Of a DNA stretch of 64,000 nucleotides, positions 9,361 to 53,687 are shown one piece after another; the first letter of the stretch is position 1, and each line of letters opens with the position of its first letter. The notes under the pieces were generated by a model that was not told where the DNA came from, made no database searches, and saw only the letters and a list, made by a program, of their open reading frames with translations. Source of the stretch: Planctomycetota bacterium (GTDB lineage Bacteria; Planctomycetota; UBA1135; UBA2386). Where the stretch lies: assembly GCA_947501605.1 (NCBI GenBank), contig CANMWZ010000006.1:22897-86896 (forward strand), read 5' to 3'. Both the position numbers and the translations under genes were made by a program.

Positions 9361-10322
9361 GCGACACAACCCGCCTGCTGCTGCTGGCGATACCACTCCA
9401 CGAAGCGACGAAGGCCGTCTTTGACCGGAGTCGTGCACCGGTAGCCGAGTTCGCGCTCGGCCAGCGAAATGTCGGCGAAGGTGATCGGCACGTCACCGGG
9501 CTGGTCTGGCAGGCGATGGAGCAGCGCCTTGCTGGCAAGCGCGTGCTCCAGCGCGGCGACCAACTCGCTCAACGAGGTCGTGGCCGAACCGCCGAGGTTG
9601 TAGATCGAATAGCCCTTGGCTCGATCCAGCGATGCAACAACGCCGCTGACGATGTCGGCAACGTAGGTGTAGTCGCGTCGGCTCTCGCCATCGCCGAAGA
9701 ACGGCAGCGCCTTGCCGGTGCTGATGCAGCGCGCAAAATGGTGGATCGCCATCTCGGGCCGCTGACGCGGGCCGTAGACCGTGAAGAAGCGCAGGCACGT
9801 AACCGGATTGCCGTGCAAGTGGTGCCACGCGTGGCAGATCACTTCGCCGGCCTTCTTGCTGGCTGCGTACGGCGATACCGGTCGATCGACGGCATCGGCC
9901 TCAGCAAACGGAACCTTGGTGTTGCCGCCGTAGACCGACGAGCTGCTGCCGAACACGAAGGGAATCGCCTTGCTGTCGATCTGCTGCATCAGCACTTGCG
10001 TGCCGGTGACATTGACGTCCATGTAGCGGACGGGGTCGGCGATCGATGGTCGAACGCCGGCGAGAGCCGCGAGGTGAATCACACCGTCACAGCCGCGCAG
10101 CGCCTGCTGGCACGTGCGCGCATCGCGAATATCGCCCAGCTGGAACGAGAACCGCTCGCCGCCCGCGGCGGTGAGCAACGCGAGATTCTTCTGCTTCAGC
10201 GCTGGGTCGTAGAAAGGATCGAGATTGTCGAGCACCTGGACCGCATCGCCGCGGGCCAGAAGACGTTCACATAGATGGGAGCCGATGAAACCGGCGCCGC
10301 CAGTAACGAGGATACGTTGCAC
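9357..10322 (-). CDS. NAD-dependent epimerase/dehydratase (SDR, UDP-sugar epimerase/decarboxylase-like)
   Basis: 321 aa with 'MQRILVTGGAGFIGSHLCERLL' and a catalytic 'YAASKKAGE' (YxxxK). First gene of the minus-strand polysaccharide operon. Confidence 0.9.
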   Translation of the reverse strand: MQRILVTGGAGFIGSHLCERLLARGDAVQVLDNLDPFYDPALKQKNLALLTAAGGERFSFQLGDIRDARTCQQALRGCDGVIHLAALAGVRPSIADPVRYMDVNVTGTQVLMQQIDSKAIPFVFGSSSSVYGGNTKVPFAEADAVDRPVSPYAASKKAGEVICHAWHHLHGNPVTCLRFFTVYGPRQRPEMAIHHFARCISTGKALPFFGDGESRRDYTYVADIVSGVVASLDRAKGYSIYNLGGSATTSLSELVAALEHALASKALLHRLPDQPGDVPITFADISLAERELGYRCTTPVKDGLRRFVEWYRQQQQAGCVA

Positions 10323-10416
10323 AATGGTTCTCCGAAGGGCGGGGGTGAGCCGCGAAGCCGGAAAGACCTACGCTAGGAACGGAGCTACGTCCAGCCACCC
10401 CTACTGCGAAGTTCCT

Positions 10417-10529
10417 CTGCGCCTTAGCGGCTCACGGCCGATCACTGCGCCGCAGCCAGCCGATCTCTGCGCCGCAGCCAGAAGGAGAGCCAAGCCAGCC
10501 AGACGGGGAGCCAAGCCAACAAGAGAGCC
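10417..10529. repeat. Phased short direct repeats in the intergenic region upstream of the polysaccharide operon
   Basis: 'CTGCGCC' occurs at 10417, 10445 and 10467; the last two extend to 'CTGCGCCGCAGCCAG' with a 22-nt period. 'GAGCCAAGCCA' occurs at 10487 and 10508 (21-nt period), with 'GAGCC' again at 10525. Confidence 0.5.
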
Positions 10530-10556
10530 GAAAGGAGAAAAGCCTCCTCCGACGAC

Positions 10557-11228
10557 TCAGGGCGTCAGCAGGCCTTCGCGAATCGCAATGCGAGCGATCT
10601 CGGCGGCCGAATGGATATTGAGCTTGCGCTGCAGGTTCTCGCGGTGCTTCTTCACAGTGCCGAGGGAGATCTTGAGGATGCCGGCCACTTCCTTGTTGGC
10701 TTTCCCCACCGCGATCAACTGGAAGACTTCGCGTTCACGCACGGTCAGCCCGGACAGACTGCGGGCCGCCAAATCTGGCCCGCCTGCTGCATCGGCCGGA
10801 GCGGGACCCAAGAACGAAGCCGCGACGCGCGGGGTCACGAACGATTCGCCGCCGTGAATGGACTCGATCGCCGGCGCCAGTTCGCGCGGGTCCGAGGACT
10901 TCGTGATGTAGCCGTCGGCGCCGGCGCGCAGCGCCTGGAACACGAACTCGCGACTCTCGTGCTGCGAAGCAATCAGCACCTTGCTCGGCGCCGACGCCTT
11001 CTTGATCGGCGCAACCGCGTCGAGGCCCGACAGGCCCGGCATTCGAATGTCGAGGATGACGACCTGCGGCTTGAGCCGACCGATCTGATCGATCGCATCG
11101 CGCGCATCCCCTGCTTCGCCGACCACTTCGAAGGCTCCCGTCTTCTCGAGCAGTGCTCGCAATCCGGCGCGAACTAGAGACTCGTCGTCGACCAAGAAGA
11201 TCGTGATGGCTGGCCGTACCTCGGTCAT
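10557..11228 (-). CDS. Two-component response regulator, NarL/FixJ (LuxR-type HTH) family
   Basis: Receiver 'ITIFLVDDESLVRAGL...VVILDIRMPGLSG' plus C-terminal HTH 'LTVREREVFQLIAVGKANKEVAGILKISLGTVKKHRENLQRKL'. Start taken at the internal Met; the ORF track starts at 11285. Confidence 0.9.
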   Translation of the reverse strand: MTEVRPAITIFLVDDESLVRAGLRALLEKTGAFEVVGEAGDARDAIDQIGRLKPQVVILDIRMPGLSGLDAVAPIKKASAPSKVLIASQHESREFVFQALRAGADGYITKSSDPRELAPAIESIHGGESFVTPRVAASFLGPAPADAAGGPDLAARSLSGLTVREREVFQLIAVGKANKEVAGILKISLGTVKKHRENLQRKLNIHSAAEIARIAIREGLLTP

Positions 11229-23385: not shown

Positions 23386-24627
23386 TCACCAAGGATCGCC
23401 GAGGCCCTTCACGATGGCCTCGATCTTGCCCAGCAACTCTGACCCAGGCTCAAGGCCATGCTTGGCCAGCGACAGACACGTGGCCGAAACATCGTCGGCG
23501 CGCGGCCGCGAGTTCGGGTTGTCGAGTCCGGCTTCGACAGCCCCGCGATAGAGCTCCAGGGCACGATCGCGGTTGCCCATCGCCGCGGCAGCCTCGGCAA
23601 TCGCACGCATTGCCGAAGCGCGATAGATGTCGAGGATTGAAGCGTGGCGTTGGCCGTAGAGCGACTCGGCATGCTCGAGCAGCGATCTGCCGCGTGCGGA
23701 ATCGCCGGCGCGATGCACAACGGCCGCCGCCTGGGCATGCACGAACACCTCATCCTCCGGGTGCCACTTCACGCCCGCAATCAGCACGTCGATCTGGCGC
23801 ACGAGCTCGAGTGCGCGCATGCCGTCCCCGCCGTCCGCCGCGTAACCCGCAATCTCGATCAGGAGCTTCAGTCGCGCGTCGCGCGGCAACTTCGTGTAAC
23901 CGCTGGTGACTCGTTTCTCGAGTTGGTCGCGCTTCTCGGCATCCGGAAAGAACCGCTTGTACAGCTTGCAGCAGGTCTGCAGCGTCACCAGGATCTCGTC
24001 GAAGTTGTCGCCCGCGAACAGCTTGTCGGCCTGCTCGAGCCACGCGGAGAACGCCGCCTCCGGCATCGCCAAGGCTGCGTCCATCTGGATGCCGGCGCCA
24101 TCACTCGATTGGATGGACTTGCTGAACTTGGCGAACTTCTCAGCGTCGCCGAGGAGGAAGTGAGTGCGGGCGATCATCGCGAACACGCGATCTGCGCGCC
24201 ACGCCTGCTCGGTTGGGTCCGCCGCCGCTGCCTTTGCGACGCTTTCGGCAATCGCAAGATGCTGACCCACCTCGTCCATGCGACCAGCCTGTGCGCAATG
24301 ATGCGCAAACTGCGCGTGCGCAAGACCACGACGCCAATCCGGAATCGTGTCGCCGATCTGCAGCGCGAGGTCGGGCATCGCGAGTTCGAAGCAGGCCTCC
24401 ACTACCGCCATTTGACCGCGGCCTCGATTCTTGATGTGTGGCACCAACGGCATCCGCAGGAATGCTTGGTTTGCCAGCTCGAGAAGGTGCTTCTGAGACG
24501 CGCTTGCCTTGCCGGTCGGCGCCGCTGTTTTGGCGGCAGGTGCTGTCGCCGCCGAGCTCTCCTGAGCCAGGACTGAGGCAGTGCCGAAAGCAGCGAAGAA
24601 GACGGACGCACACAGTGCTACGCGCAT
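23386..24627 (-). CDS. Exported alpha-helical repeat protein, function unknown
   Basis: Internal Met gives the signal peptide 'MRVALCASVFFAAFGTASVLAQE'. The rest is helix-rich with TPR/HEAT-like periodicity. I recognise no catalytic motif. Confidence 0.6.
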   Translation of the reverse strand: MRVALCASVFFAAFGTASVLAQESSAATAPAAKTAAPTGKASASQKHLLELANQAFLRMPLVPHIKNRGRGQMAVVEACFELAMPDLALQIGDTIPDWRRGLAHAQFAHHCAQAGRMDEVGQHLAIAESVAKAAAADPTEQAWRADRVFAMIARTHFLLGDAEKFAKFSKSIQSSDGAGIQMDAALAMPEAAFSAWLEQADKLFAGDNFDEILVTLQTCCKLYKRFFPDAEKRDQLEKRVTSGYTKLPRDARLKLLIEIAGYAADGGDGMRALELVRQIDVLIAGVKWHPEDEVFVHAQAAAVVHRAGDSARGRSLLEHAESLYGQRHASILDIYRASAMRAIAEAAAAMGNRDRALELYRGAVEAGLDNPNSRPRADDVSATCLSLAKHGLEPGSELLGKIEAIVKGLGDPW

Positions 24628-24913
24628 GAGACTCCTACGATTCGGATCGAGTGGGAAACGCGACAACCCGGGGATTCCTAGAAGCTGTTTCACGATTGGC
24701 GTGCGAGCGAGGCCGAGCAACGAAGGCAGAGGGCAAGGAGCGGACTCGTAGCGGAATCCGTAGCTCCCGCGGAGAGTCTGCGACGCTGCCATCGGCCGAG
24801 GTGCCGACCGCAGCCGCTAGCGCTTGGTGAAACCACTTCTACGGTGCTCGGCTCGCAACCGCGGAGCTACGCGCTCGGAGCCGCAGGCGATAGTGGCGGA
24901 CATCACCGCAAAC

Positions 24914-24975: not shown

Positions 24976-26940
24976 TCAGTCGATCGAGACCGACAGAGCG
25001 TTCGACAGCGTCATGTTGCCAAACAGCGTCGGCGCACCAGCCGGATCGAAGGTCGCGGCCTGGAAGTAGAACGCGTAGCCCTGCGGGAAGCCCGTCGGGA
25101 TGCTCAGCGGCAAGGAGGCATTACCGCTACCGTCCGTGAAGACGGCGAAGGTGATGAGGTTGTTGATGAAGTCCGGGATCAGCGTGCCGCCAGCAAACGG
25201 CGTATCAAGGCGACCGCCACCGAAGATCGTGCCACCATTGACCGCGATGATCGACAGCGAGAAGGCCGGGGCCTTCAGCAGCGAGACGTTCCACGTGAGC
25301 GGAGCAAACGCGAGGTGCGTGCCGGTCGCCGACAGCACCGGAGCGCCGTTGGTGCCGACGTTGCTGCCAAAGCCGAGGTCGTGCCAGCCGTTCGTCGGCG
25401 TGTAGCCGTAGGCTTCCGATGCCGTCCAGCCGGCGAGCCAGCTGGCCGCGCCCGGGGCGAAGGCGCCGCGGTACTGGGACGACGTGAAGAAGCCGTCACC
25501 CGTGCTGAAGGCGACGCTCGAGAGCGCGTCATTGGCTGGCGCGGGATTGAGGCCGATGACCGGGGTCATCGTCTGCCCACCGCGGACGACCGACGGGCCA
25601 CGCGTGATGCTCGTGATTGGCGAAGCAACCGCGATCACGTTGTTGTTGGCCACGGCGAAGACACCGCGAGCGTTTGCTTCGGTGTAGGCCGCTGCCAAGT
25701 TGTTGTTGAAGAAGACGCTGTCACTGATCTGGCACAGGTTGCCCGACGACTGCGCGGTGTAGAACAGGGCGGGGTTCAACGGTGCGTTGACCAAGGAGGT
25801 CGCCGAGAACGGCGTCGTCCAGGTCGCGGCCCACGACAGCGTGCCGTTGAAGCCGTAACCAGCACCACCGTCACCGTCGACGTTGTCGAACGACACGACG
25901 CGCTCACCAGCGTCCATGAAAATGCTGTTGCGGAACTGCGCGCGTGCATTGTCGCGCCAGGCCGTCAGGTGGTCGCCCGACGCCGCACCGTTCGGCTGGC
26001 CGATGACCGTCATGTTGTAGAGCGTCGTGGTCGTTACCGGCTGGTAGTCACTCTGCTCAGCGCCATCCATCTCGAAGGCATTGTCGCCGACACCCGAGCC
26101 CTGGGCCGCGTTGACGCTGTAACCCTGGACGACCAAGCCATACTGCGCCTTGCCGCGCCAGCCCTGGTCGACGTCGAAGCTGTCGTCACCGATGTTCCAG
26201 ATGCTGAAGTGGCGCAGATTGACCGTGCCACCCCAGATCTCGATGCCGTCGTCGACGTTGTTCATGATCTCGAGGTAATCGATGTCCGTGCCGCGGCCGA
26301 TGCCGCCCAGAGACAACCCGTTCAACTCGTTGGCGGCACCGATCACCTTGCCGCCGTAGCGGATCGAGAGGTACTTGATCGAACCGCTGTCGTCATCGTC
26401 GTTCGAAGGCAGCAGAACACTGCCACCGTAGTCCGCAAGGCCGCTGCCGCTCGGTGGAGCGAGACCCTCCATCACCGCAAAGTTCGTCGAACCTGGAGCC
26501 GGCGTGTTGGTCAGAATCGCGTTCTCCGACACGTAGCCACGACCCATGACCGTCAGGTTGCCCCATTCGTTGGCCGCTTCGCGCCACGTGCCAGTCTTTG
26601 GGTTGCCACCAACCCAGGTCGCGCGATCGGCGGCCGAGGTCAGGATCACTGGATTGAACTGGTTGCCGTTGACGAAGATTTGCGCGCCACGGCACACCGC
26701 GAGGCTGCCGCCCGATGGTGGCGTGCTCAGGGGGACAGTCGAAGACGCGATGACCGTGCCCGGCTCGATCGTCAAGGTCGCGCCTGGCAGCACGTAGATC
26801 TGGGCCTGCAGGTCATAAACGTTGTTGGCGGTCCAGGTGGTCGAGACCGCGATGTTGGCAGTGACAGGAATCTGCGCCTGGGCGACTGCCGCCAGCGCAA
26901 CAACCGCGCAAGCGGCCTTGATGGTAGAGTTCATGAGCAT
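24976..26940 (-). CDS. Secreted beta-rich protein, function unknown (possible beta-helix core plus a C-terminal ~130-aa module shared with 61618-62598)
   Basis: Internal Met gives the signal peptide 'MLMNSTIKAACAVVALAAVAQAQ'. Motifs 'IDYLEIMNNVDDGIEIWGGTVNLRHFSIWNIGDDSFDVDQGWRG'. The ORF track extends artefactually to 27255. Confidence 0.65.
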   Translation of the reverse strand: MLMNSTIKAACAVVALAAVAQAQIPVTANIAVSTTWTANNVYDLQAQIYVLPGATLTIEPGTVIASSTVPLSTPPSGGSLAVCRGAQIFVNGNQFNPVILTSAADRATWVGGNPKTGTWREAANEWGNLTVMGRGYVSENAILTNTPAPGSTNFAVMEGLAPPSGSGLADYGGSVLLPSNDDDDSGSIKYLSIRYGGKVIGAANELNGLSLGGIGRGTDIDYLEIMNNVDDGIEIWGGTVNLRHFSIWNIGDDSFDVDQGWRGKAQYGLVVQGYSVNAAQGSGVGDNAFEMDGAEQSDYQPVTTTTLYNMTVIGQPNGAASGDHLTAWRDNARAQFRNSIFMDAGERVVSFDNVDGDGGAGYGFNGTLSWAATWTTPFSATSLVNAPLNPALFYTAQSSGNLCQISDSVFFNNNLAAAYTEANARGVFAVANNNVIAVASPITSITRGPSVVRGGQTMTPVIGLNPAPANDALSSVAFSTGDGFFTSSQYRGAFAPGAASWLAGWTASEAYGYTPTNGWHDLGFGSNVGTNGAPVLSATGTHLAFAPLTWNVSLLKAPAFSLSIIAVNGGTIFGGGRLDTPFAGGTLIPDFINNLITFAVFTDGSGNASLPLSIPTGFPQGYAFYFQAATFDPAGAPTLFGNMTLSNALSVSID

Positions 26941-26944
26941 TGGG

Positions 26945-26979
26945 CTTCGGAGTTTGAGTTGCTTTCGGAGTTTGAGTTG
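26945..26979. repeat. 17/18-nt tandem direct repeat in the 5' leader of the 654-aa secreted protein gene
   Basis: 'cttcggagtttgagttg' (26945-26961) is followed by 'ctttcggagtttgagttg' (26962-26979). On the coding strand this is an A/C-rich, G-poor 'CAACTCAAACTCCGAA(A)G' x2 ending 4 nt before the ATG. Confidence 0.7.
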
Positions 26980-27092
26980 GTTGGCGGACGGTGCGAGGCT
27001 GTCCTCGCACCATGGACACCCTAGGGATCTGTGTTTGTTTGCAGTGAAGGCTGCAAGGAGCCTTCGCGAGTGTCCGTACGCTCGGACGAAGC

Positions 27093-28217
27093 TCAGTTGG
27101 CGCCTTGGATGGGCTGGCCATTGACCGTGCCCGACGTCAACACGCCAGCAATGCCGGCGACCTGGACGGCAATCGGGCCGACGCCGCGAGCCAAGGTCAT
27201 CACCACGGCCGCAGACTGTCGCGCTCCGTTCGGAGCACGCGCTTCCATGCTCCAATCCAACTGGAACACGTCGTCGAAGCGGCCGACTGCGGTTCGGAGC
27301 GGTGGCACGCCCGTCGGCAACACGCGCAGGATGGTGGTCGCCGAAGTCGTCGGGGCCGCAGTTCCGTACGGCTGGTAGAGCAGCGCCGGAAGAACGCTCA
27401 GCATCGGCTGACCCAGCGTCACTTCCGCCGGCAGGAACAGGCTCAGGTCATGGATCTCCTGGTAGTCCGTGCCACCATTGGTGGAGTACTCACCGAGGAC
27501 ATCGGTCGGGCCATAGGCAAAGGGCGGCGAATCAATGCGGCGCAGGTAGAGACCGAGATTCTGGTCGGGCGTCTCGATGAGCAGGCGAAAGACCGTCACG
27601 CCTTGCAGGTTGGGCTCGGCCGCCGAGGCCGTCAGCGTGATGGTGATGCCGTTGCTGAAGTTCCAGCGGTTGCCGGTCTGCAGCGGCAAGAACCCCGGCG
27701 TCGAACCAAAGACACCCTGCGGGTTGGTGGTCACCCACCCGAGCAGTCGTTGCGCCACCCAGTAGACGGCCGGGAAGTTGAGCGTCTGGAATCGGACCTT
27801 GCCGGTATCCGGCTCGGTAACCCCAGCGATCTCGATCACGCGACCATCTTGCTGGCGAGCCAGGACGACCGCAGCTCGCCCCTGCCGTCCAGCCTCGAAC
27901 GGCAACGTGACCGCGACCGGCAGCGCGAATTCCCGCGGACTCGGGCCGAGCAGAATGCCGCGACTGAGGTTGCTGAAACCCGGCTGGATCTGTGCAAAGC
28001 TGGTCGCAACCGTGAGTTGCACCGGCGCGGTAGTCGCGCCGGGCGGAACCGCGATTTCGAGGCCTGCGAGTTCCCCGGTGGTCAACTGCAGCACGCCGCC
28101 GGCGACGCCGACCCGTTGGCCAGCGACCACCTGAGCGGCACCACCGCCGCCGCCACCGCCAGAACAGGCAGCGAGCAGGCAGAGGGAGAACAAGAACACG
28201 TTGCGGCACTGGCCCAT
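27093..28217 (-). CDS. Lipoprotein, function unknown
   Basis: 'MGQCRNVFLFSLCLLAACSGGGGGGG' has a lipobox 'LAAC' followed by a Gly linker. The remainder is beta-rich with no recognisable motif. Confidence 0.6.
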   Translation of the reverse strand: MGQCRNVFLFSLCLLAACSGGGGGGGAAQVVAGQRVGVAGGVLQLTTGELAGLEIAVPPGATTAPVQLTVATSFAQIQPGFSNLSRGILLGPSPREFALPVAVTLPFEAGRQGRAAVVLARQQDGRVIEIAGVTEPDTGKVRFQTLNFPAVYWVAQRLLGWVTTNPQGVFGSTPGFLPLQTGNRWNFSNGITITLTASAAEPNLQGVTVFRLLIETPDQNLGLYLRRIDSPPFAYGPTDVLGEYSTNGGTDYQEIHDLSLFLPAEVTLGQPMLSVLPALLYQPYGTAAPTTSATTILRVLPTGVPPLRTAVGRFDDVFQLDWSMEARAPNGARQSAAVVMTLARGVGPIAVQVAGIAGVLTSGTVNGQPIQGAN

Positions 28218-47299: not shown

Positions 47300-47416
47300 C
47301 CAGCAGAGGAGACATCATGATGCAGCCTCTCCGCTCGCTCCTGGTGGCCGCCCCTGCGACCACGCGGAGTGTGCGCAGCCCCTTCTCCCGCACGCTCTGA
47401 GCCGGCCCTATCTCCA

Positions 47417-49300
47417 ATGCTGCCTCGAGCCGATGCTCCAGATGTGGGCCTACCGCGCTGGTTCTGGTGGCTCCCAGCGGTCGTCTTCGCCGCATGGTTT
47501 CCGATCGCGCCGTTCTGGGCCAGCGACGACTACTTTGCGCTGCACTGGGCCAAAGACCTCGAGCACGTGCTCGCCGACTTCACGGGACCGTGGTACGGCG
47601 CCACCGACCTGTTCTTCTTCTACCGCCCACTGATCACGCTGAGTCTGTGGCTCGAAGTCCAGGTCGCGGGCAGCGACCCATGGCTTGCACATATCAACAA
47701 CGTGCTCGTCCATGCGTGCAGCGCCACGATGGTCGCGCTGCTGTGGCGACGTTGGCTTTCGATCGGCTACGCCTTTGCTGCGGGACTCGTCTGGGGCCTG
47801 TCGCCCATCCACATCGGCGCCATTGGCTGGGCGATCGCGCGCACCGACGGGTTCAGTTGCGCATTCGCACTGATGAGCACCTTGCTGCTCGCGCGCTATG
47901 TCGAAGGGTCGACGACCCGACGGTGGCCGTCGCTGGTCTGCTTTGCGCTGGCGCTGTTGTGCAAGGAGACCGTGCTGTGCCTACCGGGCTTGCTGTTCTT
48001 GGTGGCTTTCGCCAAGCAAGACCCCGCAGCGATCACACCCCGCGCCAAGAGAGCGCTGAGCGCGATCTGGCCGCACATCGCACTCCTCATTGCCTACGTC
48101 GCCTGGCGCGTCGCGATTCTGGGGCGAATGGGAGGTTACGACGCCGCGGCCTACGAGCCTCTGCAGATGGCAGCAGGGCTCAGTGAGTACGCCTTGGGCC
48201 TCCTGAACCCTCTGTACTGGTCGCCACCTCCAGAACGGATCGAGCTGCTGCCGCGCGTCCTACACCTCGCCCTCGCACCACTCGGCTTCGCGCCGGCACT
48301 CCTGGCGGTGACCGTCCTTCTGGGCAAGGGTCGAGCCAAGACGCTCGGCTTCGCGGTCGCGTGGTTCTTGCTCGCGAGCGTGCCGATGGCCGGATTCTTC
48401 GCCCAGGCCGACAACCACCACAACCTCCGCTATTTCTGCCTCGCATTCGCGGGGTTGGCGGCGCTACTCGTGACCGGTGGGCGCGTCGCAACAGCACTCG
48501 CCCTCACATGCACTCTCCTCATGCTGGTACGCGTTCGGGTCGAGCAACACGATGCCGACATGCAGTCGCGCAGCATGCACGAGCAGTTGGTTTCGTTGCT
48601 CGATGACGATCTGCCAGGCCCGTGGTTCGTCGCCGGCCTGCCGCATCAGAGCCAGAACGCCGTGGCACTTCAGTTTCACTTCGGGATCGACCGGATGCTG
48701 ACGCCGCCGTTCGCAAACGGCACGACTCGCGTGTTTGCGCATCGGCCGACCTTCGCATTACCGGGTGCAGTAGACCTCACCGACGAGGACGGGCTGCCGA
48801 TCGCGCCGCCGATGGGAACGACGCTGCTGTTCCGTGGCAGCGAACTGCTGGTGACCGTGCCACAAAAGCCACTGCCTGAACTGCCGCTCGACGCGCCTAC
48901 GGAGGTCGACGCCACGAGCCCGGCACTCTATCGACTCAACAACGGTTCCGGGCCGGTGCGCTTCACGATGCCCGGCGTGCGTACGCCCGCGTTGCGCCTG
49001 ACGTTCTTCACTGCAAGCGGGTATCTCGGTGCGCTGGTGCCAAACCACGCTGCCGCCGACGAGCAGGACGGCAGGCTCGACCTGCTGACTTTCTTCAAGA
49101 CCGCGCAGTGGTCCGCTGGGCGCGAACTGATTCGGGGCCTCGAGCCCTCGACGATCATGGACTTGGCCACGGACTTCCCGGTGCTCATCGAAGGCGGGGA
49201 CTACCGCGACGACACCTTCACGCCGACCCACCGAGCCCGCCGCATGGTGATGTTCCGCTTCGACCGCGGCCTGCCCAAGGTGATGCGCGGCGGCGATTGA
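47417..49300 (+). CDS. Polytopic membrane protein, GT-C-fold glycosyltransferase-like (PMT_2/TMTC-like) with a soluble C-terminal domain
   Basis: At least 10 predicted TM segments. First-loop acidic motif 'WASDDYF', then 'FFFYRPLITLSLWLE' and 'HINNVLVHA'. C-terminal ~200 aa are non-membrane. Confidence 0.65.
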   Translation: MLPRADAPDVGLPRWFWWLPAVVFAAWFPIAPFWASDDYFALHWAKDLEHVLADFTGPWYGATDLFFFYRPLITLSLWLEVQVAGSDPWLAHINNVLVHACSATMVALLWRRWLSIGYAFAAGLVWGLSPIHIGAIGWAIARTDGFSCAFALMSTLLLARYVEGSTTRRWPSLVCFALALLCKETVLCLPGLLFLVAFAKQDPAAITPRAKRALSAIWPHIALLIAYVAWRVAILGRMGGYDAAAYEPLQMAAGLSEYALGLLNPLYWSPPPERIELLPRVLHLALAPLGFAPALLAVTVLLGKGRAKTLGFAVAWFLLASVPMAGFFAQADNHHNLRYFCLAFAGLAALLVTGGRVATALALTCTLLMLVRVRVEQHDADMQSRSMHEQLVSLLDDDLPGPWFVAGLPHQSQNAVALQFHFGIDRMLTPPFANGTTRVFAHRPTFALPGAVDLTDEDGLPIAPPMGTTLLFRGSELLVTVPQKPLPELPLDAPTEVDATSPALYRLNNGSGPVRFTMPGVRTPALRLTFFTASGYLGALVPNHAAADEQDGRLDLLTFFKTAQWSAGRELIRGLEPSTIMDLATDFPVLIEGGDYRDDTFTPTHRARRMVMFRFDRGLPKVMRGGD

Positions 49301-49349: not shown

Positions 49350-50210
49350 TCAGATCCCGTCGGCGAACGGCGACTCTGGCGTCAGGATCTCTTCGACATC
49401 GAGCAGGTCGCAACGGCAAGCAACGCCGAGCAGCGACGACAAGGATGGCGTCGTTCGCCCCTCATCGCCACTGATGAACTCCTTCACGTAGGTACCGTGC
49501 TGGCACTGCACCTTCAGCTGCAGCCGCATGTCCGCGATGTACTCGAGTCCCTTCACGCTGACGAGTCGTTCGCGGTCCAGGTCGGCACGGCGATGCGAGA
49601 CGCGCTGCGGCGTGCGCTGGACGACAACACCGTGAAACGCGAGCGCGGCATCGAGACTCGCCGGCAATTGTTCGAGCGCGACCTCGGCACGATAGATCTT
49701 CTCGAAGTTCGTCTGCTTCCAGTAAGCGACGCGGTTCTTGCTGACCGGCACGAACGCCGACAACTCGATCGCGCCCTCGGCCCGCTGCTCGATCTCCTTG
49801 CGCAGTTCGTCGAGGTCCACGTCGAGCTTGCGCGCACCGATCACTTCGTAGACGAACGGACGACCGCGACCGAGCATCAGCACGTCGATGTCTTCACGGC
49901 CGGCACCGTGGAAGCGTCCCGTCCGAGCTTGGAACGCCGGCATCATGCGGCGGCCGATCAGCTCTTGGACGGATTCCTTGGTCAGCTTGCCGAAGCCCTC
50001 GCAGGGCACGCAACCTTCGCGTCGGCGGCGGTCACCCTTGCAGGTCGGGCACCAAAAAATGGTCTGCGGCAAACCGCGTCGAAGTTTGCGATACCTCGAC
50101 TCGAAGAAGAGGTTGCGGCGTGAGACGCGCGGACGCGGGTTGCGCGCTGGATCGGCGGACGAGGGTTCCACAGAGCCGCAGTATAGGCACACCCCCACGG
50201 CCGACTGCAA
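49350..50210 (-). CDS. pus10: Pus10-type tRNA pseudouridine synthase homologue (Zn-ribbon + catalytic domain, no THUMP domain)
   Basis: 'FHGAGREDIDVLMLGRGRPFVYEV', 'KIYRAEV', 'QRTPQRVSHRR', 'HGTYVKEFISGDEGRTTPSLSSLLG..CDLLDVEEI' match Pus10 signatures. Has CxxC x3 N-terminally. Start is uncertain (TTG 50210 or GTG 50198); the upstream ORF portion overlaps the receiver gene. Confidence 0.8.
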   Translation of the reverse strand: MQSAVGVCLYCGSVEPSSADPARNPRPRVSRRNLFFESRYRKLRRGLPQTIFWCPTCKGDRRRREGCVPCEGFGKLTKESVQELIGRRMMPAFQARTGRFHGAGREDIDVLMLGRGRPFVYEVIGARKLDVDLDELRKEIEQRAEGAIELSAFVPVSKNRVAYWKQTNFEKIYRAEVALEQLPASLDAALAFHGVVVQRTPQRVSHRRADLDRERLVSVKGLEYIADMRLQLKVQCQHGTYVKEFISGDEGRTTPSLSSLLGVACRCDLLDVEEILTPESPFADGI

Positions 50211-50244: not shown

Positions 50245-50670
50245 TCACTTTGTGCGGGCGGTGGAACGCGGCGCCGAAGACGGCCGACGATTGGCGTCGT
50301 CGCGGCCGGAATGGCGTTCGATGAAGCGACCGAGGAACGAGAACAGTTCCTTGCAGTCAATCGGCGTTCGCAGCAGCGAATGGATCTCGAAACGCTGCTT
50401 CTCGTTGCTCATCGCCTTTGGCTCGCGCCCAGCCACCAGTGCGACCAACTCGGTCGCCTGGTCGAACGAGCGCAGGTGCTGCAGCATCCCCATCGACTCC
50501 TGATCGAGCGGCTCGACCCCGAGGAAGACGCAGTCGAAAGTGCGGGATCTGAGTTCGTTGATACCGCGATAGCCGGAGCCCACGGTCACCTTGATGCCAG
50601 GGAACTGCTGCAACCCGACCTTCAGTTGGTCTCGAACCAGCGCATCCTTCTCGATCAACAAAACATCCAT
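50245..50670 (-). CDS. Single-domain response-regulator receiver (atypical)
   Basis: 'MDVLLIEKDALVRDQLK....FDCVFLGVEP' has a CheY-like fold pattern with the phospho-Asp context retained. The Thr/Ser ('LVALVAG') and Lys ('LLRTPI') positions look substituted. Confidence 0.7.
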   Translation of the reverse strand: MDVLLIEKDALVRDQLKVGLQQFPGIKVTVGSGYRGINELRSRTFDCVFLGVEPLDQESMGMLQHLRSFDQATELVALVAGREPKAMSNEKQRFEIHSLLRTPIDCKELFSFLGRFIERHSGRDDANRRPSSAPRSTARTK

Positions 50671-50803
50671 CGGCGTATCGAGCCTCCAGAGTCGTGTATC
50701 GGCCGTGCGCTAGTTCCGACGCGACCCGCGGCACCGTCCCATCCAAGGTGATGCGGCGATTGCAGGCTTGACCGCGATGGCATGGGCTGGTTCGGTGCAG
50801 GTC

Positions 50804-51751
50804 ATGAACTGCCTCGCCGGAATCGACGAAGCGGGCCTCGGGCCAATCCTCGGGCCGATGGTCGTCGCCGGCTGTGCGTTCACCGGCCCCGACGGCGCCG
50901 ATCCGTGGGCGCTGCTCGAAGAGTACGTCGGCCGCACCCGCCACCAGAAGGACAAGGTCCGCGTCGCCGACAGCAAGAAGGTGCACCAAGGACCGCACGG
51001 ACTGCGACGCATCGAGGAGACCGCACTCTGCTTCTGGGCCGTACTGCACGGCGAGGTCCCGACCGACGTCGCCAGCTGGCTGCAGCGGCTCGGTGTCGAC
51101 CTCGACCAACTGGCGAAGTGTCCGTGGTACGAGGGCCTCGCGCAGAAACTGCCTCTGCATGCCGACCGCCAGTGGCTCGAACTGCACGCCGAACTCGTGC
51201 GTCGGTCGATGGCCAGCGTCGGCATCGCCATGCGCACGATCGCCGTTCGCGCAGTCGACGTCGAAGAGTGGAACCTCTTGATCGCCGAGACCGACAACAA
51301 GAGCCGCGCCCACTTCCGCGCCTACGCCAGCGTGCTCGCGCGCCTGCTCGACGCGATGCCCGGTCGCGGTCACCTCGTCGCCGATCGCTGCGGCGGCCGC
51401 ATGCACTATGCGCGCGATCTCAAAGAGCTGCGCCCTGGTGTCGCCGTCGCGACTGTGCACGAAGCAACCGCGAGTTCGAGCTACCGCCTCGGTCGCGAAC
51501 CTGACGTCGTCACGGTCACGTTTGCCGAGAAGGGCGACGACCGCTCGTTCCCAACCGCGCTCGCCAGCTGTTTTGCCAAGTACGTGCGCGAGCTGATGGT
51601 GCACGTGATGAACGACTGGTTTTGCAGCAAGGTGCCGGGCCTGCAACGCACTGCCGGTTACTACGTCGATGGCCATCGCTTTCTGCAGGACCTCGCGCCA
51701 CACATGAACGCGCTCGACCTTCCGACTCAGCGCCTCGTGCGCGTGCGGTGA
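50804..51751 (+). CDS. RNase HII-family protein with a large internal insertion
   Basis: 'GIDEAGLGPILGPMVVAG', 'VADSKKV' and C-terminal 'AEKGDDRSFPTALASCFAKYVRE' match RNase HII catalytic blocks. About 150 extra aa lie between blocks 2 and 3. Confidence 0.7.
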   Translation: MNCLAGIDEAGLGPILGPMVVAGCAFTGPDGADPWALLEEYVGRTRHQKDKVRVADSKKVHQGPHGLRRIEETALCFWAVLHGEVPTDVASWLQRLGVDLDQLAKCPWYEGLAQKLPLHADRQWLELHAELVRRSMASVGIAMRTIAVRAVDVEEWNLLIAETDNKSRAHFRAYASVLARLLDAMPGRGHLVADRCGGRMHYARDLKELRPGVAVATVHEATASSSYRLGREPDVVTVTFAEKGDDRSFPTALASCFAKYVRELMVHVMNDWFCSKVPGLQRTAGYYVDGHRFLQDLAPHMNALDLPTQRLVRVR

Positions 51752-51755
51752 CACG

Positions 51756-53687
51756 ATGACGCCAGTCCTCACCGCCGCGATCGCCGCCGCCTGCGTGCTG
51801 CCGCTGTCGCTGCGACTCCTCGCAGCCCGACGAGTCGTTCTGGCCAATGTGCTCTGGCTCACGGTCGCCATCGTCATTGGCATCGCCGCACGAACGGTCA
51901 CGCCCGACGTCCCGCTGGAGCCGACCTCACGTCCCGTCGAGCGGCTCGGCGACGGCTACGTCGGCAGCGGCACGTGCACCAAGTGCCATCCCGGCGAGCA
52001 TGCAAGTTGGCAGCAGTCGTTCCATCGCACGATGACACAGAGCGTCTCGCGCCCGGCGCTGCGCGCGATCTTCGACGACCTGCAACTCGACTACTTCGGC
52101 GCCCCGGTGTCGCTGCACTGGCGCGGGTCCGAGCTGTTCGTGCGGTTGTCGCCCGACGCGCGCGGTCGCCGCAACGAACGCAAAGTCGTGCAGCTGACCG
52201 GATCGCACCACGCGCAAGTGCTCTGGTACGAAACCGGCAACCAGCGCGAACTCGGCATCGTGCCGATGGTCTACCGCATCGCAGAACAGCGCTGGCTGCC
52301 GTTCCCCGCCGTGTTCTTGATACCGCCGCAGCTGCGCGAGCCGCCGCTGCCGGGAACGTGGAATGGCAACTGCAACGGGTGCCACACGACCCACAGCATG
52401 CCGCGGCTCGATACCGATCGTGTCGACACCATGGCGGCGGAGTTCGGCATCGCCTGCGAGGCGTGCCATGGCCCGGGCGAGCGCCACACGACCGCGAACG
52501 CGAACCCGCTACGTCGCTACGGCCTGCACTACGGTGGCAAGTCCAGCGACGACACCGTTGCCCAGCCAACGCGTATGTCGAGCGCGCGCAGCAACGAGGT
52601 CTGTGGGCAGTGCCACTCTGTGTCGATCGTCAAGCAGCAGCACTTCGACACATGGCGCGACCATGGCTCGCCGTTCCGGCCGGGCGAAGAACTGGCGCAG
52701 AGCCAGCTCGTGGTCTCGCCGCAGGACAGGAGTGCGCCCGAGTTGCACCGCAAGCTCGAGCAGGACCCACAGTTCTTTGCGCACACCTTCTGGAACGACG
52801 GTCTGCCGCGCGTGACCGGCCGCGAACTGCACGGCATCCGAGCCTCTCCGTGCTACGTCGGCGGCGAGGGCGAGCGTTCTCTGTCCTGCACCAGCTGCCA
52901 CCGTATGCACCGGGAGCAGGACGACGCCCGCGAACCGAGCGCGTGGGCAAGCTCGCAACTGGGCCAAGGCATGGACGGCAACGCCGCCTGCACGCAGTGC
53001 CATCCGAAGTTCGAGGATGCCACCGCTCTACAAGCGCACACCCACCACGCGCCACGATCTGCCGGCAGCTCGTGCTACGACTGCCACATGCCGCATACGA
53101 GCTATGGGCTCATGAAGGCGATGCGCAGTCATTCGATCGAGTCGCCGAGCGTTGCCCGCGAACTGCAGACCGGCAGGCCGAACGCATGCAATCTGTGCCA
53201 TCTCGATCGCACGCTGCAGTGGACGCAGAACCGACTGCAGGAGTGGTACGGAACCGAACCGAGCCCCCTCGACGAGGACCAGCGCAGCGTTGCCGCGGGG
53301 CCGCGTTGGCTGCTGCAGGGCGACGCCGGCATCCGCGCTCTCGCCGCGTGGAGCTCGGGCTATGAGCCGGCGCGCGCGGCCTCGGGCCACGACTGGCTGC
53401 AGCCGTACCTCGCGCAACTGCTCAGCGATCCCTACTACGCCGTGCGGTTCGTCGCGCGGCGGTCGCTCATGACGCTGCCCAGTGCGCCATCGCTCGCGGG
53501 CTACGACGAGTTGGCCGAGACCGGGCGCTGCCAGGAAACCACAGCCCGCCTCCAGCTCGAGTTCGCCGCCACCTCGACTCGCAGCGCGCGCACCGAGATC
53601 CTGCTGGACGAAGGCGGGATGCAGTGGGACACCTTCCGCCGCATCCTCGCCCGCCGCGACGACCGCCCCGTGTTCCTCGCCGAATGA
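51756..53687 (+). CDS. Membrane-anchored octahaem c-type cytochrome with a C-terminal helical (HEAT-like) region
   Basis: N-terminal TM and eight CxxCH motifs (CTKCH, CNGCH, CEACH, CGQCH, CTSCH, CTQCH, CYDCH, CNLCH). Starts 4 nt after the RNase HII-like stop. Confidence 0.9.
   Translation: MTPVLTAAIAAACVLPLSLRLLAARRVVLANVLWLTVAIVIGIAARTVTPDVPLEPTSRPVERLGDGYVGSGTCTKCHPGEHASWQQSFHRTMTQSVSRPALRAIFDDLQLDYFGAPVSLHWRGSELFVRLSPDARGRRNERKVVQLTGSHHAQVLWYETGNQRELGIVPMVYRIAEQRWLPFPAVFLIPPQLREPPLPGTWNGNCNGCHTTHSMPRLDTDRVDTMAAEFGIACEACHGPGERHTTANANPLRRYGLHYGGKSSDDTVAQPTRMSSARSNEVCGQCHSVSIVKQQHFDTWRDHGSPFRPGEELAQSQLVVSPQDRSAPELHRKLEQDPQFFAHTFWNDGLPRVTGRELHGIRASPCYVGGEGERSLSCTSCHRMHREQDDAREPSAWASSQLGQGMDGNAACTQCHPKFEDATALQAHTHHAPRSAGSSCYDCHMPHTSYGLMKAMRSHSIESPSVARELQTGRPNACNLCHLDRTLQWTQNRLQEWYGTEPSPLDEDQRSVAAGPRWLLQGDAGIRALAAWSSGYEPARAASGHDWLQPYLAQLLSDPYYAVRFVARRSLMTLPSAPSLAGYDELAETGRCQETTARLQLEFAATSTRSARTEILLDEGGMQWDTFRRILARRDDRPVFLAE

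Follow-up and report, generated by a model that had tools for sequence, protein, structure and literature searches.

According to primary papers and reviews published between 2006 and 2025, the tRNA pseudouridine synthase Pus10 is absent from Bacteria (PMC7912444, PMC9957541, PMC7749629 and PMC1616971 among them). A 64,000-nucleotide stretch of DNA from a Planctomycetota bacterium (GenBank assembly GCA_947501605.1, contig CANMWZ010000006.1, positions 22,897 to 86,896; hereafter the window) carries a gene that a first-pass annotation, made from the sequence letters, had taken for a Pus10 homologue lacking the THUMP domain. The locus raises the question of whether a bacterium can encode a genuine Pus10 and, if so, what such an enzyme would do without its accessory domain. 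We find that the product, here called mini-Pus10, is a complete Pus10 catalytic domain (PF21238/TIGR01213/COG1258 family) and that the N-terminal zinc-ribbon/THUMP accessory domain is absent from it. Judged from its sequence, mini-Pus10 would be a stand-alone, active pseudouridine synthase of the tRNA T-loop, forming pseudouridine at position 55 (Psi55) and/or position 54 (Psi54) with the catalytic domain only and acquired once from Archaea, a reading to which we assign a probability of roughly 0.68.

Family and active site of the window protein

The open reading frame (ORF) ending at 49350 on the minus strand encodes 336 amino acids (aa) in its longest form, from a TTG at 50360, a start that would run into the upstream gene, which ends at 50245. 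Starting at the TTG at 50210 yields a protein of 286 aa with the N-terminus M-QSAVG (stop codon 49350-49352), and both this N-terminus and this length agree with the nearest homologue, P0001 (286 aa, 84% identity); family homologues are typically 265-306 aa long. The exact start codon is uncertain, with GTG 50198 and GTG 50192 as alternatives to TTG 50210. All three sequence blocks quoted in the first-pass annotation read in this frame. The public gene call for the window protein, P0010, is a product of 219 aa (49350-50006) starting at the GTG codon V118, and because V118 falls inside a conserved Cys knuckle this start is probably wrong. The orthologue in Saltatorellus ferox Poly30 (Poly30_41950, at 9932-10843 of locus L065) is named 'hypothetical protein' by NCBI; public annotation of the gene is poor.

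Profile searches against the Pus10 families gave matches above their cutoffs. Pfam PF21238 (Pus10_C) is matched with E=7e-56 and 189.8-190.5 bits (cutoff 27 bits) over profile positions 1-231 of 232, and NCBIfam TIGR01213, the model for tRNA pseudouridine(54/55) synthase Pus10, with 257.8 bits (cutoff 200 bits) over profile positions 155-401 of 402, which leaves positions 1-154 unmatched. Human PUS10 (Protein Data Bank, PDB, entry 2v9k) is matched in sequence over chain residues 312-522 with E=3e-26. Models of the other candidate families stayed far below threshold for the window protein, at 13.5 bits against a cutoff of 151.45 for TruB (TIGR00431) and 14.7 bits against 242 for Cbf5.

The predicted fold agrees with this assignment. 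An AlphaFold2 (AF2) model built on a 75-sequence alignment reached a mean predicted local confidence (pLDDT) of 88 and a predicted TM-score (pTM) of 0.79; an earlier model from a shallow 21-sequence alignment had given pLDDT 67 and was dropped in its favour. Residues 1-25 are disordered in the model, with pLDDT below 55 for residues 1-20. Its best PDB fold match is again 2v9k (E=5e-22, TM-score normalised to the query, TMq, 0.72), which superposes with an rmsd of 2.9 A over 253 columns at 29% identity and is aligned through the catalytic domain, Gly286-Asp528 (PMC7749629). The second-best match has E=1.6e-6, and TruA, Cbf5 and TruB come after it. TruB, the bacterial Psi55 synthase, resembles mini-Pus10 in its presumed T-loop site, in the general pseudouridine-synthase fold and in working without a guide RNA, but it belongs to a different family: its fold matches to the model reach a TMq of only 0.34-0.42, and unlike Pus10 it possesses a PUA domain but lacks a forefinger loop. 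The assignment of the gene to Pus10 in the first-pass annotation is thus borne out by the Pfam and NCBIfam matches and by the sequence and fold matches to 2v9k.

The active site is intact. An alignment of 75 homologues with 45-84% identity to the window protein contains 68 invariant columns, and these take in the catalytic Asp and the core motifs, as the annotation had supposed. The window sequence H101-G-A-G-R105-E-D107-I-D109 places a His at -6, an Arg at -2 and an Asp at +2 from D107, the arrangement of the Pus10 consensus GREDxD (Arg at -2, Asp at +2 and, in non-Thermococcales archaea, His at -6; PMC3753934). H101, R105 and D107 are invariant and D109 is found in at least 90% of the homologues; Y173 and L270 are likewise invariant, and V242 and K243 are each kept in at least 90%. 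In the thumb loop, T200, P201, R203, V204, H206, R207 and R208 do not vary. The low pLDDT of this loop (58) suggests that it is flexible, as far as the model can tell. In Methanocaldococcus jannaschii Pus10 (MjPus10), the key residues are R273, D275, D277, Y339, I412-K413, L440 and the thumb pair H376-R377 (Joardar et al., PMC3753934), and R105, D107, D109, Y173, V242-K243, L270 and H206-R207 of mini-Pus10 align with them, a correspondence drawn from an alignment with human and archaeal sequences and not from a solved structure.

This degree of conservation bears on whether the main role of the protein might be independent of catalysis, as a chaperone or binding protein for tRNA or other RNA of the kind suggested for TruB and for human PUS10 in the nucleus. 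Nuclear human PUS10 does have pseudouridylation-independent functions (PMC9957541), and a review of the T-loop groups Pus10, with the word 'probably', among the Psi55 synthases that double as chaperones (PMC7912444). Catalytic residues that persist down to about 45% identity would, however, be unexpected if binding alone mattered, and we consider such a role improbable.

The missing accessory domain and the Cys knuckle

The claim that the THUMP domain is missing holds. Neither the window protein nor any of 74 homologues has a Pfam match to THUMP or Pus10_THUMP_arc, while full-length relatives do match PF22023. In the labelled archaeal loci the gene encodes 400-447 aa, with 220-270 residues preceding the catalytic motif, against only 75-100 in about 75 planctomycete loci. 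A tblastn search with five archaeal N-terminal domains, run against the window and all bacterial loci (those of 76 non-archaeal relatives), found no match, so no separate gene next to pus10 encodes the accessory domain. The idea that a neighbouring gene supplies THUMP in trans was rejected, for the neighbourhood, by the same search. Stop-to-stop ORFs of up to 929 aa in some loci had looked like fusions; where checked, they overlap the opposite-strand RNase HII-like gene described below, and all of them are taken as artefacts of high GC content.

Comparison with archaeal Pus10 (TIGR01213, COG1258; M. jannaschii and Pyrococcus furiosus) delimits what has gone and what has stayed. The catalytic domain of the window protein aligns end to end with those of the full-length archaeal enzymes, at 44-46% identity and collinearly from the first beta-strand (vFieGRYrKl.RG.PQT) to the C-terminus, and the two share GREDxD, the His at -6, the thumb His-Arg, the Tyr, the Val/Ile-Lys, the Leu and a Cys4 knuckle. 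Mini-Pus10 differs in lacking the N-terminal zinc-ribbon and THUMP region of about 160-230 residues, in carrying a 5-residue Arg-rich insert in most members and in its bacterial host. Human PUS10 differs from it by a 285-residue THUMP-containing accessory domain, and reads 'ERKL' where the planctomycete knuckle ends 'FGKL'; to our knowledge it has no Cys knuckle at this position. Mini-Pus10 thus has every sequence and structural hallmark of the Pus10 catalytic family and not the canonical two-domain architecture, and for this reason we file it as a bacterial THUMP-less Pus10 subfamily.

The first-pass annotation had also described a CxxC-rich N-terminus preceding the catalytic domain, with three such pairs. 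Two of them, CPTC and CVPC, are invariant (C54, C57, C67 and C70 in 75 sequences); the third, CLYC, is not conserved, being already CLYS in the nearest homologue, and lies in a variable N-terminal tail that is probably disordered. A reading of the invariant pairs as a remnant of the accessory domain does not survive the archaeal alignment, in which both fall on the CxxCxGxGCxxC knuckle of the forefinger loop, 40-50 residues ahead of the catalytic Asp and within the Pus10_C catalytic-domain profile. Weak DnaJ_CXXCXGXG matches also occur at the knuckle, which the AF2 model places with a pLDDT of 83-90. Relative to the archaeal spacing, most planctomycete members carry the Arg-rich insert between the two CxxC pairs (KGDRRRRxGC); the sublineage represented by locus L072 is without it and retains the archaeal spacing. 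In MjPus10 the forefinger segments ffl1 (C227-R231) and ffl2 (C238-V249) are needed for Psi54 and not for Psi55 (PMC3753934).

Loss of the accessory domain need not mean loss of activity. The P. furiosus enzyme (PfuPus10) modifies tRNA without its 3' CA as well as a mini-substrate (PMC1616971), MjPus10 modifies a T-arm microhelix, and human PUS10 is active without the CCA end (PMC9957541). Because these enzymes accept such reduced substrates, the THUMP domain is dispensable in principle: in the characterised Pus10 enzymes neither the chemistry nor the choice of site strictly requires it.

A planctomycete lineage and its origin

Mini-Pus10 has thousands of relatives in the protein database. The best 120 relatives each of the window and Saltatorellus proteins are all short, with Pus10_C as the sole precomputed domain in every case bar P0064, which has one extra domain (PF27659), and wherever their source is named it is Planctomycetota (one is given only as 'bacterium'). 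NCBI and JGI name many of these proteins Pus10 automatically and others 'hypothetical protein'. In a genome scan with one genome per GTDB species we recovered at least 566 relatives, of which the best 80 were examined: 74 are labelled bacterial, nearly all of them metagenome-assembled genomes (MAGs) of a 'Planctomycetota bacterium', and the other six are archaeal, with 44-46% identity. The carriers, at least 74 species-level genomes labelled Planctomycetota, include the finished genome of the cultured strain S. ferox Poly30 and a pair of MAG records (6.6-7.2 Mb), of which one is labelled as a chromosome. Full-text literature searches for bacterial Pus10, for Pus10 together with Planctomycetes and for COG1258 returned no report of such a lineage. 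Databases already label these proteins Pus10 automatically, and no description in the literature was found. The annotation had allowed for a family that is both common and already characterised in bacteria; common it is, within one planctomycete clade and under the automatic name Pus10, but it is not characterised.

In a neighbour-joining (NJ) tree of 114 sequences the planctomycete short forms are monophyletic, with a bootstrap of 99/100, and their nearest relatives outside the clade include labelled archaeal full-length Pus10 proteins at 44-46% identity; other near ones are unlabelled. The horizontal acquisition suggested in the first-pass annotation fits this picture. Taken together, the monophyly, the purifying selection reported below, the chromosomal setting and a conserved synteny point to a single acquisition long ago, with vertical descent since then as a core gene of the chromosome. 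The donor was, on the sequence comparison, most likely archaeal.

Could the short protein be an artefact? A pseudogene cut short, a faulty gene call with a THUMP exon or ORF hidden behind it, and a metagenome bin contaminated by archaeal DNA would each be a way to obtain one. The public call for the window protein is indeed a 219-aa fragment, the carriers are mostly MAGs, and two of the contigs are labelled Myxococcota and Paracoccaceae. Yet the same short architecture recurs in about 75 loci, the finished genome of a cultured strain among them; the genes found upstream are conserved and unrelated to THUMP (CheY-like, Lgt-like and RNase HII-like); the flanking genes are bacterial; and the archaeal N-terminal domains were not found by tblastn, as described above. 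The window gene is moreover under purifying selection, with a dN/dS of 0.17-0.20 against its nearest relatives. We regard an artefact as very improbable, and a pseudogene, a fragment or contamination as rejected as far as sequence analysis allows.

The two oddly labelled contigs deserve separate mention. Mini-Pus10 of L051, a labelled Myxococcota MAG, and of L068, a labelled Paracoccaceae MAG, nests deep inside the planctomycete clade, L068 being the nearest neighbour of S. ferox, and both contigs keep the RNase HII-like neighbour. Because they combine this position in the clade with its synteny, they are probably mis-binned planctomycete contigs.

Other short proteins with Pus10_C as their only domain were seen in bacterial contigs (P0204/P0287, P0177 and P0269; 248-269 aa, without THUMP), with FliG, sigma-70 and TGT, with RelA/SpoT and with GidB in their flanks. 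Across the four loci L087, L089, L090 and L091, whose Pus10_C proteins also fall outside the planctomycete clade, the neighbours are clearly bacterial, Rho joining those just named. P0204/P0287, P0177 and P0269 resemble the planctomycete forms in having Pus10_C only, no THUMP and bacterial flanking genes, but differ from them in falling outside the clade in the NJ tree, in keeping the archaeal knuckle spacing and in occupying different neighbourhoods; they are probably independent acquisitions or reductions. As such forms lie outside the planctomycete clade, bacterial Pus10 is not confined to one lineage, and as the bacterial contigs that carry them are unrelated, the accessory domain has been lost, or the gene transferred, on more than one occasion.

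Putative substrate, gene neighbourhood and significance

In order to rationalise a Pus10 reduced to its catalytic domain, we propose the following mechanism. Mini-Pus10 would convert U55 of tRNA, and possibly U54, to pseudouridine, with Asp107 as the putative catalytic residue. As in archaeal Pus10, the T stem-loop would be gripped by the His-Arg hook of the thumb loop and by the forefinger loop, stabilised by the four cysteines, and Arg105 (-2) and His101 (-6) may occupy the place vacated by the flipped-out uridine, the role proposed for them in the archaeal enzyme. Anchoring of the acceptor stem and CCA end by the zinc-ribbon/THUMP domain would be lost, and the arginine run in the Cys knuckle might, by conjecture, compensate for it in part. 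The gene would have entered an ancestor of Saltatorellus-like Planctomycetota once, most likely from Archaea, and been inherited vertically since. An active T-loop pseudouridine synthase is the most economical reading because every element for catalysis and for gripping the T-loop has been kept. The features associated with Psi54 in Archaea, namely the long forefinger loop with its Cys knuckle, the His at -6 and the thumb His-Arg hook, are all present as well, which makes a dual Psi54/Psi55 enzyme plausible at the level of sequence.

A substrate exists, as canonical T-arms with U54-U55 (GGTTCAAATCC and GGTTCGAATCC; GGTTCRAATCC) are encoded by tRNA-Pro(TGG) genes from two members of the clade. 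The window holds no tRNA gene and the clade loci only these two, too few to judge peculiarities of the T-loop. With E. coli TruB as an approximate query, tblastn found no match in the window or in 86 loci (about 1.36 Mb in all, about 20 kb per genome, too small a share to bear on whether TruB is co-encoded), and searches of such loci for S15, RbfA and TrmA likewise found no match.

An active but retargeted enzyme, in line with the different RNA target that the first-pass annotation had thought possible, has to be weighed at this point. Deprived of the acceptor-stem ruler that THUMP provides, it would cease to select tRNA and would pseudouridylate some other RNA with a T-loop-like hairpin, for instance rRNA, tmRNA or an mRNA, leaving Psi55 of tRNA to TruB, which bacteria normally possess already (PMC7912444). 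The accessory domain that is lost helps to anchor tRNA in other THUMP enzymes (PMC9957541), and most members share a clade-specific basic insert in the forefinger knuckle; both would suit a change of target. On the other hand, all mapped determinants of T-loop recognition are unchanged, full-length Pus10 already takes bare T-arm substrates, and the gene context points to no alternative target. We consider retargeting unlikely, though less so than a role independent of catalysis.

Several points weigh against a T-loop synthase as well. All characterised Pus10 enzymes carry the accessory domain. Kamalampeta et al. 2013 reportedly put forward the THUMP-containing domain as the part that binds the acceptor stem, and an enzyme without it might bind tRNA poorly. 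A compensating role for the Arg-rich insert is conjecture, and the L072 sublineage does without the insert. If TruB is co-encoded, a second enzyme for Psi55 would be superfluous, and selection might have kept the gene for Psi54 or for something else. It is accordingly a tentative proposal, which we hold at somewhat below even odds, that the clade as a whole uses mini-Pus10 as its T-loop synthase, with TruB displaced or with archaeal-style Psi54 in bacterial tRNA.

The surroundings of the gene (Table 1) are those of a bacterial chromosome: genes for ValRS, a FabA-like protein, DAHP synthase, polysaccharide synthesis, ExbB and Fpg lie around it, and the genes scanned included no integrase or transposase. 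In the window's subclade the gene of a CheY-like pseudo-receiver, a probable operon partner of pus10 there, lies directly upstream on the same strand, an arrangement seen in 33 loci. The column of the CheY phospho-acceptor D57 holds G, T or Q in 12/12 aligned pseudo-receivers, so that the protein is not phosphorylatable in the usual way.

The divergent RNase HII-like gene is a neighbour kept across the planctomycete clade, lying upstream of pus10 in 71/86 loci, down to 31-40% identity, and in 0/6 archaeal loci; in S. ferox it occupies L065 7943-8929 (-). Its likeness to RNase HII is confined to an N-terminal GIDEAGLGPxLGP motif and a C-terminal 'ALASCxAKYxRE' region; D20, E21 and D206 are invariant, and a profile search of the PDB ranked eukaryotic RNase H2A and archaeal RNase HII first. 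Its conservation beside pus10 could be old synteny or a functional link; plain synteny accounts for it equally well, and no linking mechanism is evident. The membrane protein downstream of pus10 is kept in 27 loci and has no Pfam or NCBIfam match, and the cytochrome gene, which begins 4 nt past the RNase HII-like gene, is found in the closest relatives only (8 loci). Elsewhere in the window, three large consecutive ORFs have no Pfam match at E<=1e-4.

Table 1. Coordinates of mini-Pus10, its sequence elements, its neighbours and related features; positions refer to the window unless a locus (L) is named.
Feature	Position	Strand	Remarks
THUMP-less mini-Pus10 gene	49350..50210	-	286 aa; Pfam, NCBIfam and PDB matches
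Variable N-terminal tail, residues 1-30, with non-conserved CLYC	50121..50210	-	Unaligned in homologue alignments
Pus10 catalytic domain, residues 35-275	49386..50108	-	PF21238 match
Cys4 knuckle C54-P-T-C57 KGDRRRREG C67-V-P-C70, forefinger-loop region	50001..50051	-	Alignment to archaeal sequences
Active-site motif G104-R-E-D107-I-D109	49884..49901	-	Read from sequence; Asp107 codon 49890-49892
Thumb loop T200-PQRVS-H206-R207-R208, His-Arg hook retained	49587..49613	-	Aligns with human 'TPLRVLHRR'
CheY-like pseudo-receiver, 141 aa, 35-nt gap upstream of pus10	50245..50670	-	Response_reg 18.5 bits, below cutoff
RNase HII-like gene, 327 aa, divergently transcribed	50768..51751	+	Pfam RNase_HII 44.7 bits
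Predicted membrane protein, 643 aa, convergent to pus10, 49-nt gap between stops	47369-49300	+	
Multihaem c-type cytochrome, 643 aa, several CXXCH	51756-53687	+	Weak DmsE and GSU2203 decahaem matches
Three large consecutive ORFs, 2114/759/468 aa	28365-34709, 24976-27255, 23386-24792	-	GC3 0.75-0.84 (gene-like)
Short or N-terminally different Pus10_C proteins, 248-404 aa	L087 8001-8783, L089 3888-4634, L090 5001-5810, L091 6001-7215		
tRNA-Pro(TGG) genes of two clade members	L072 464-540, L055 12-88	-	3' CCA encoded

Mini-Pus10 is no new kind of enzyme, and its automatic labelling as Pus10 keeps the surprise, though real, within bounds. Its interest is that it contradicts a repeated statement of the field and is experimentally tractable: with a conserved bacterial lineage that includes a cultured strain, the statement that Pus10 is absent from Bacteria needs correcting. 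As a natural deletion of the THUMP/zinc-ribbon region, the protein can be used to ask what this domain contributes to the choice between U54 and U55, and replacement of TruB or an archaeal-type Psi54 is testable in S. ferox or in the E. coli truB trmA system used for archaeal Pus10. Should mini-Pus10 prove to be the T-loop synthase of the whole clade, the THUMP/zinc-ribbon domain would be dispensable for Pus10 in vivo, and the textbook absence of Pus10 and of Psi54 from Bacteria would be overturned.

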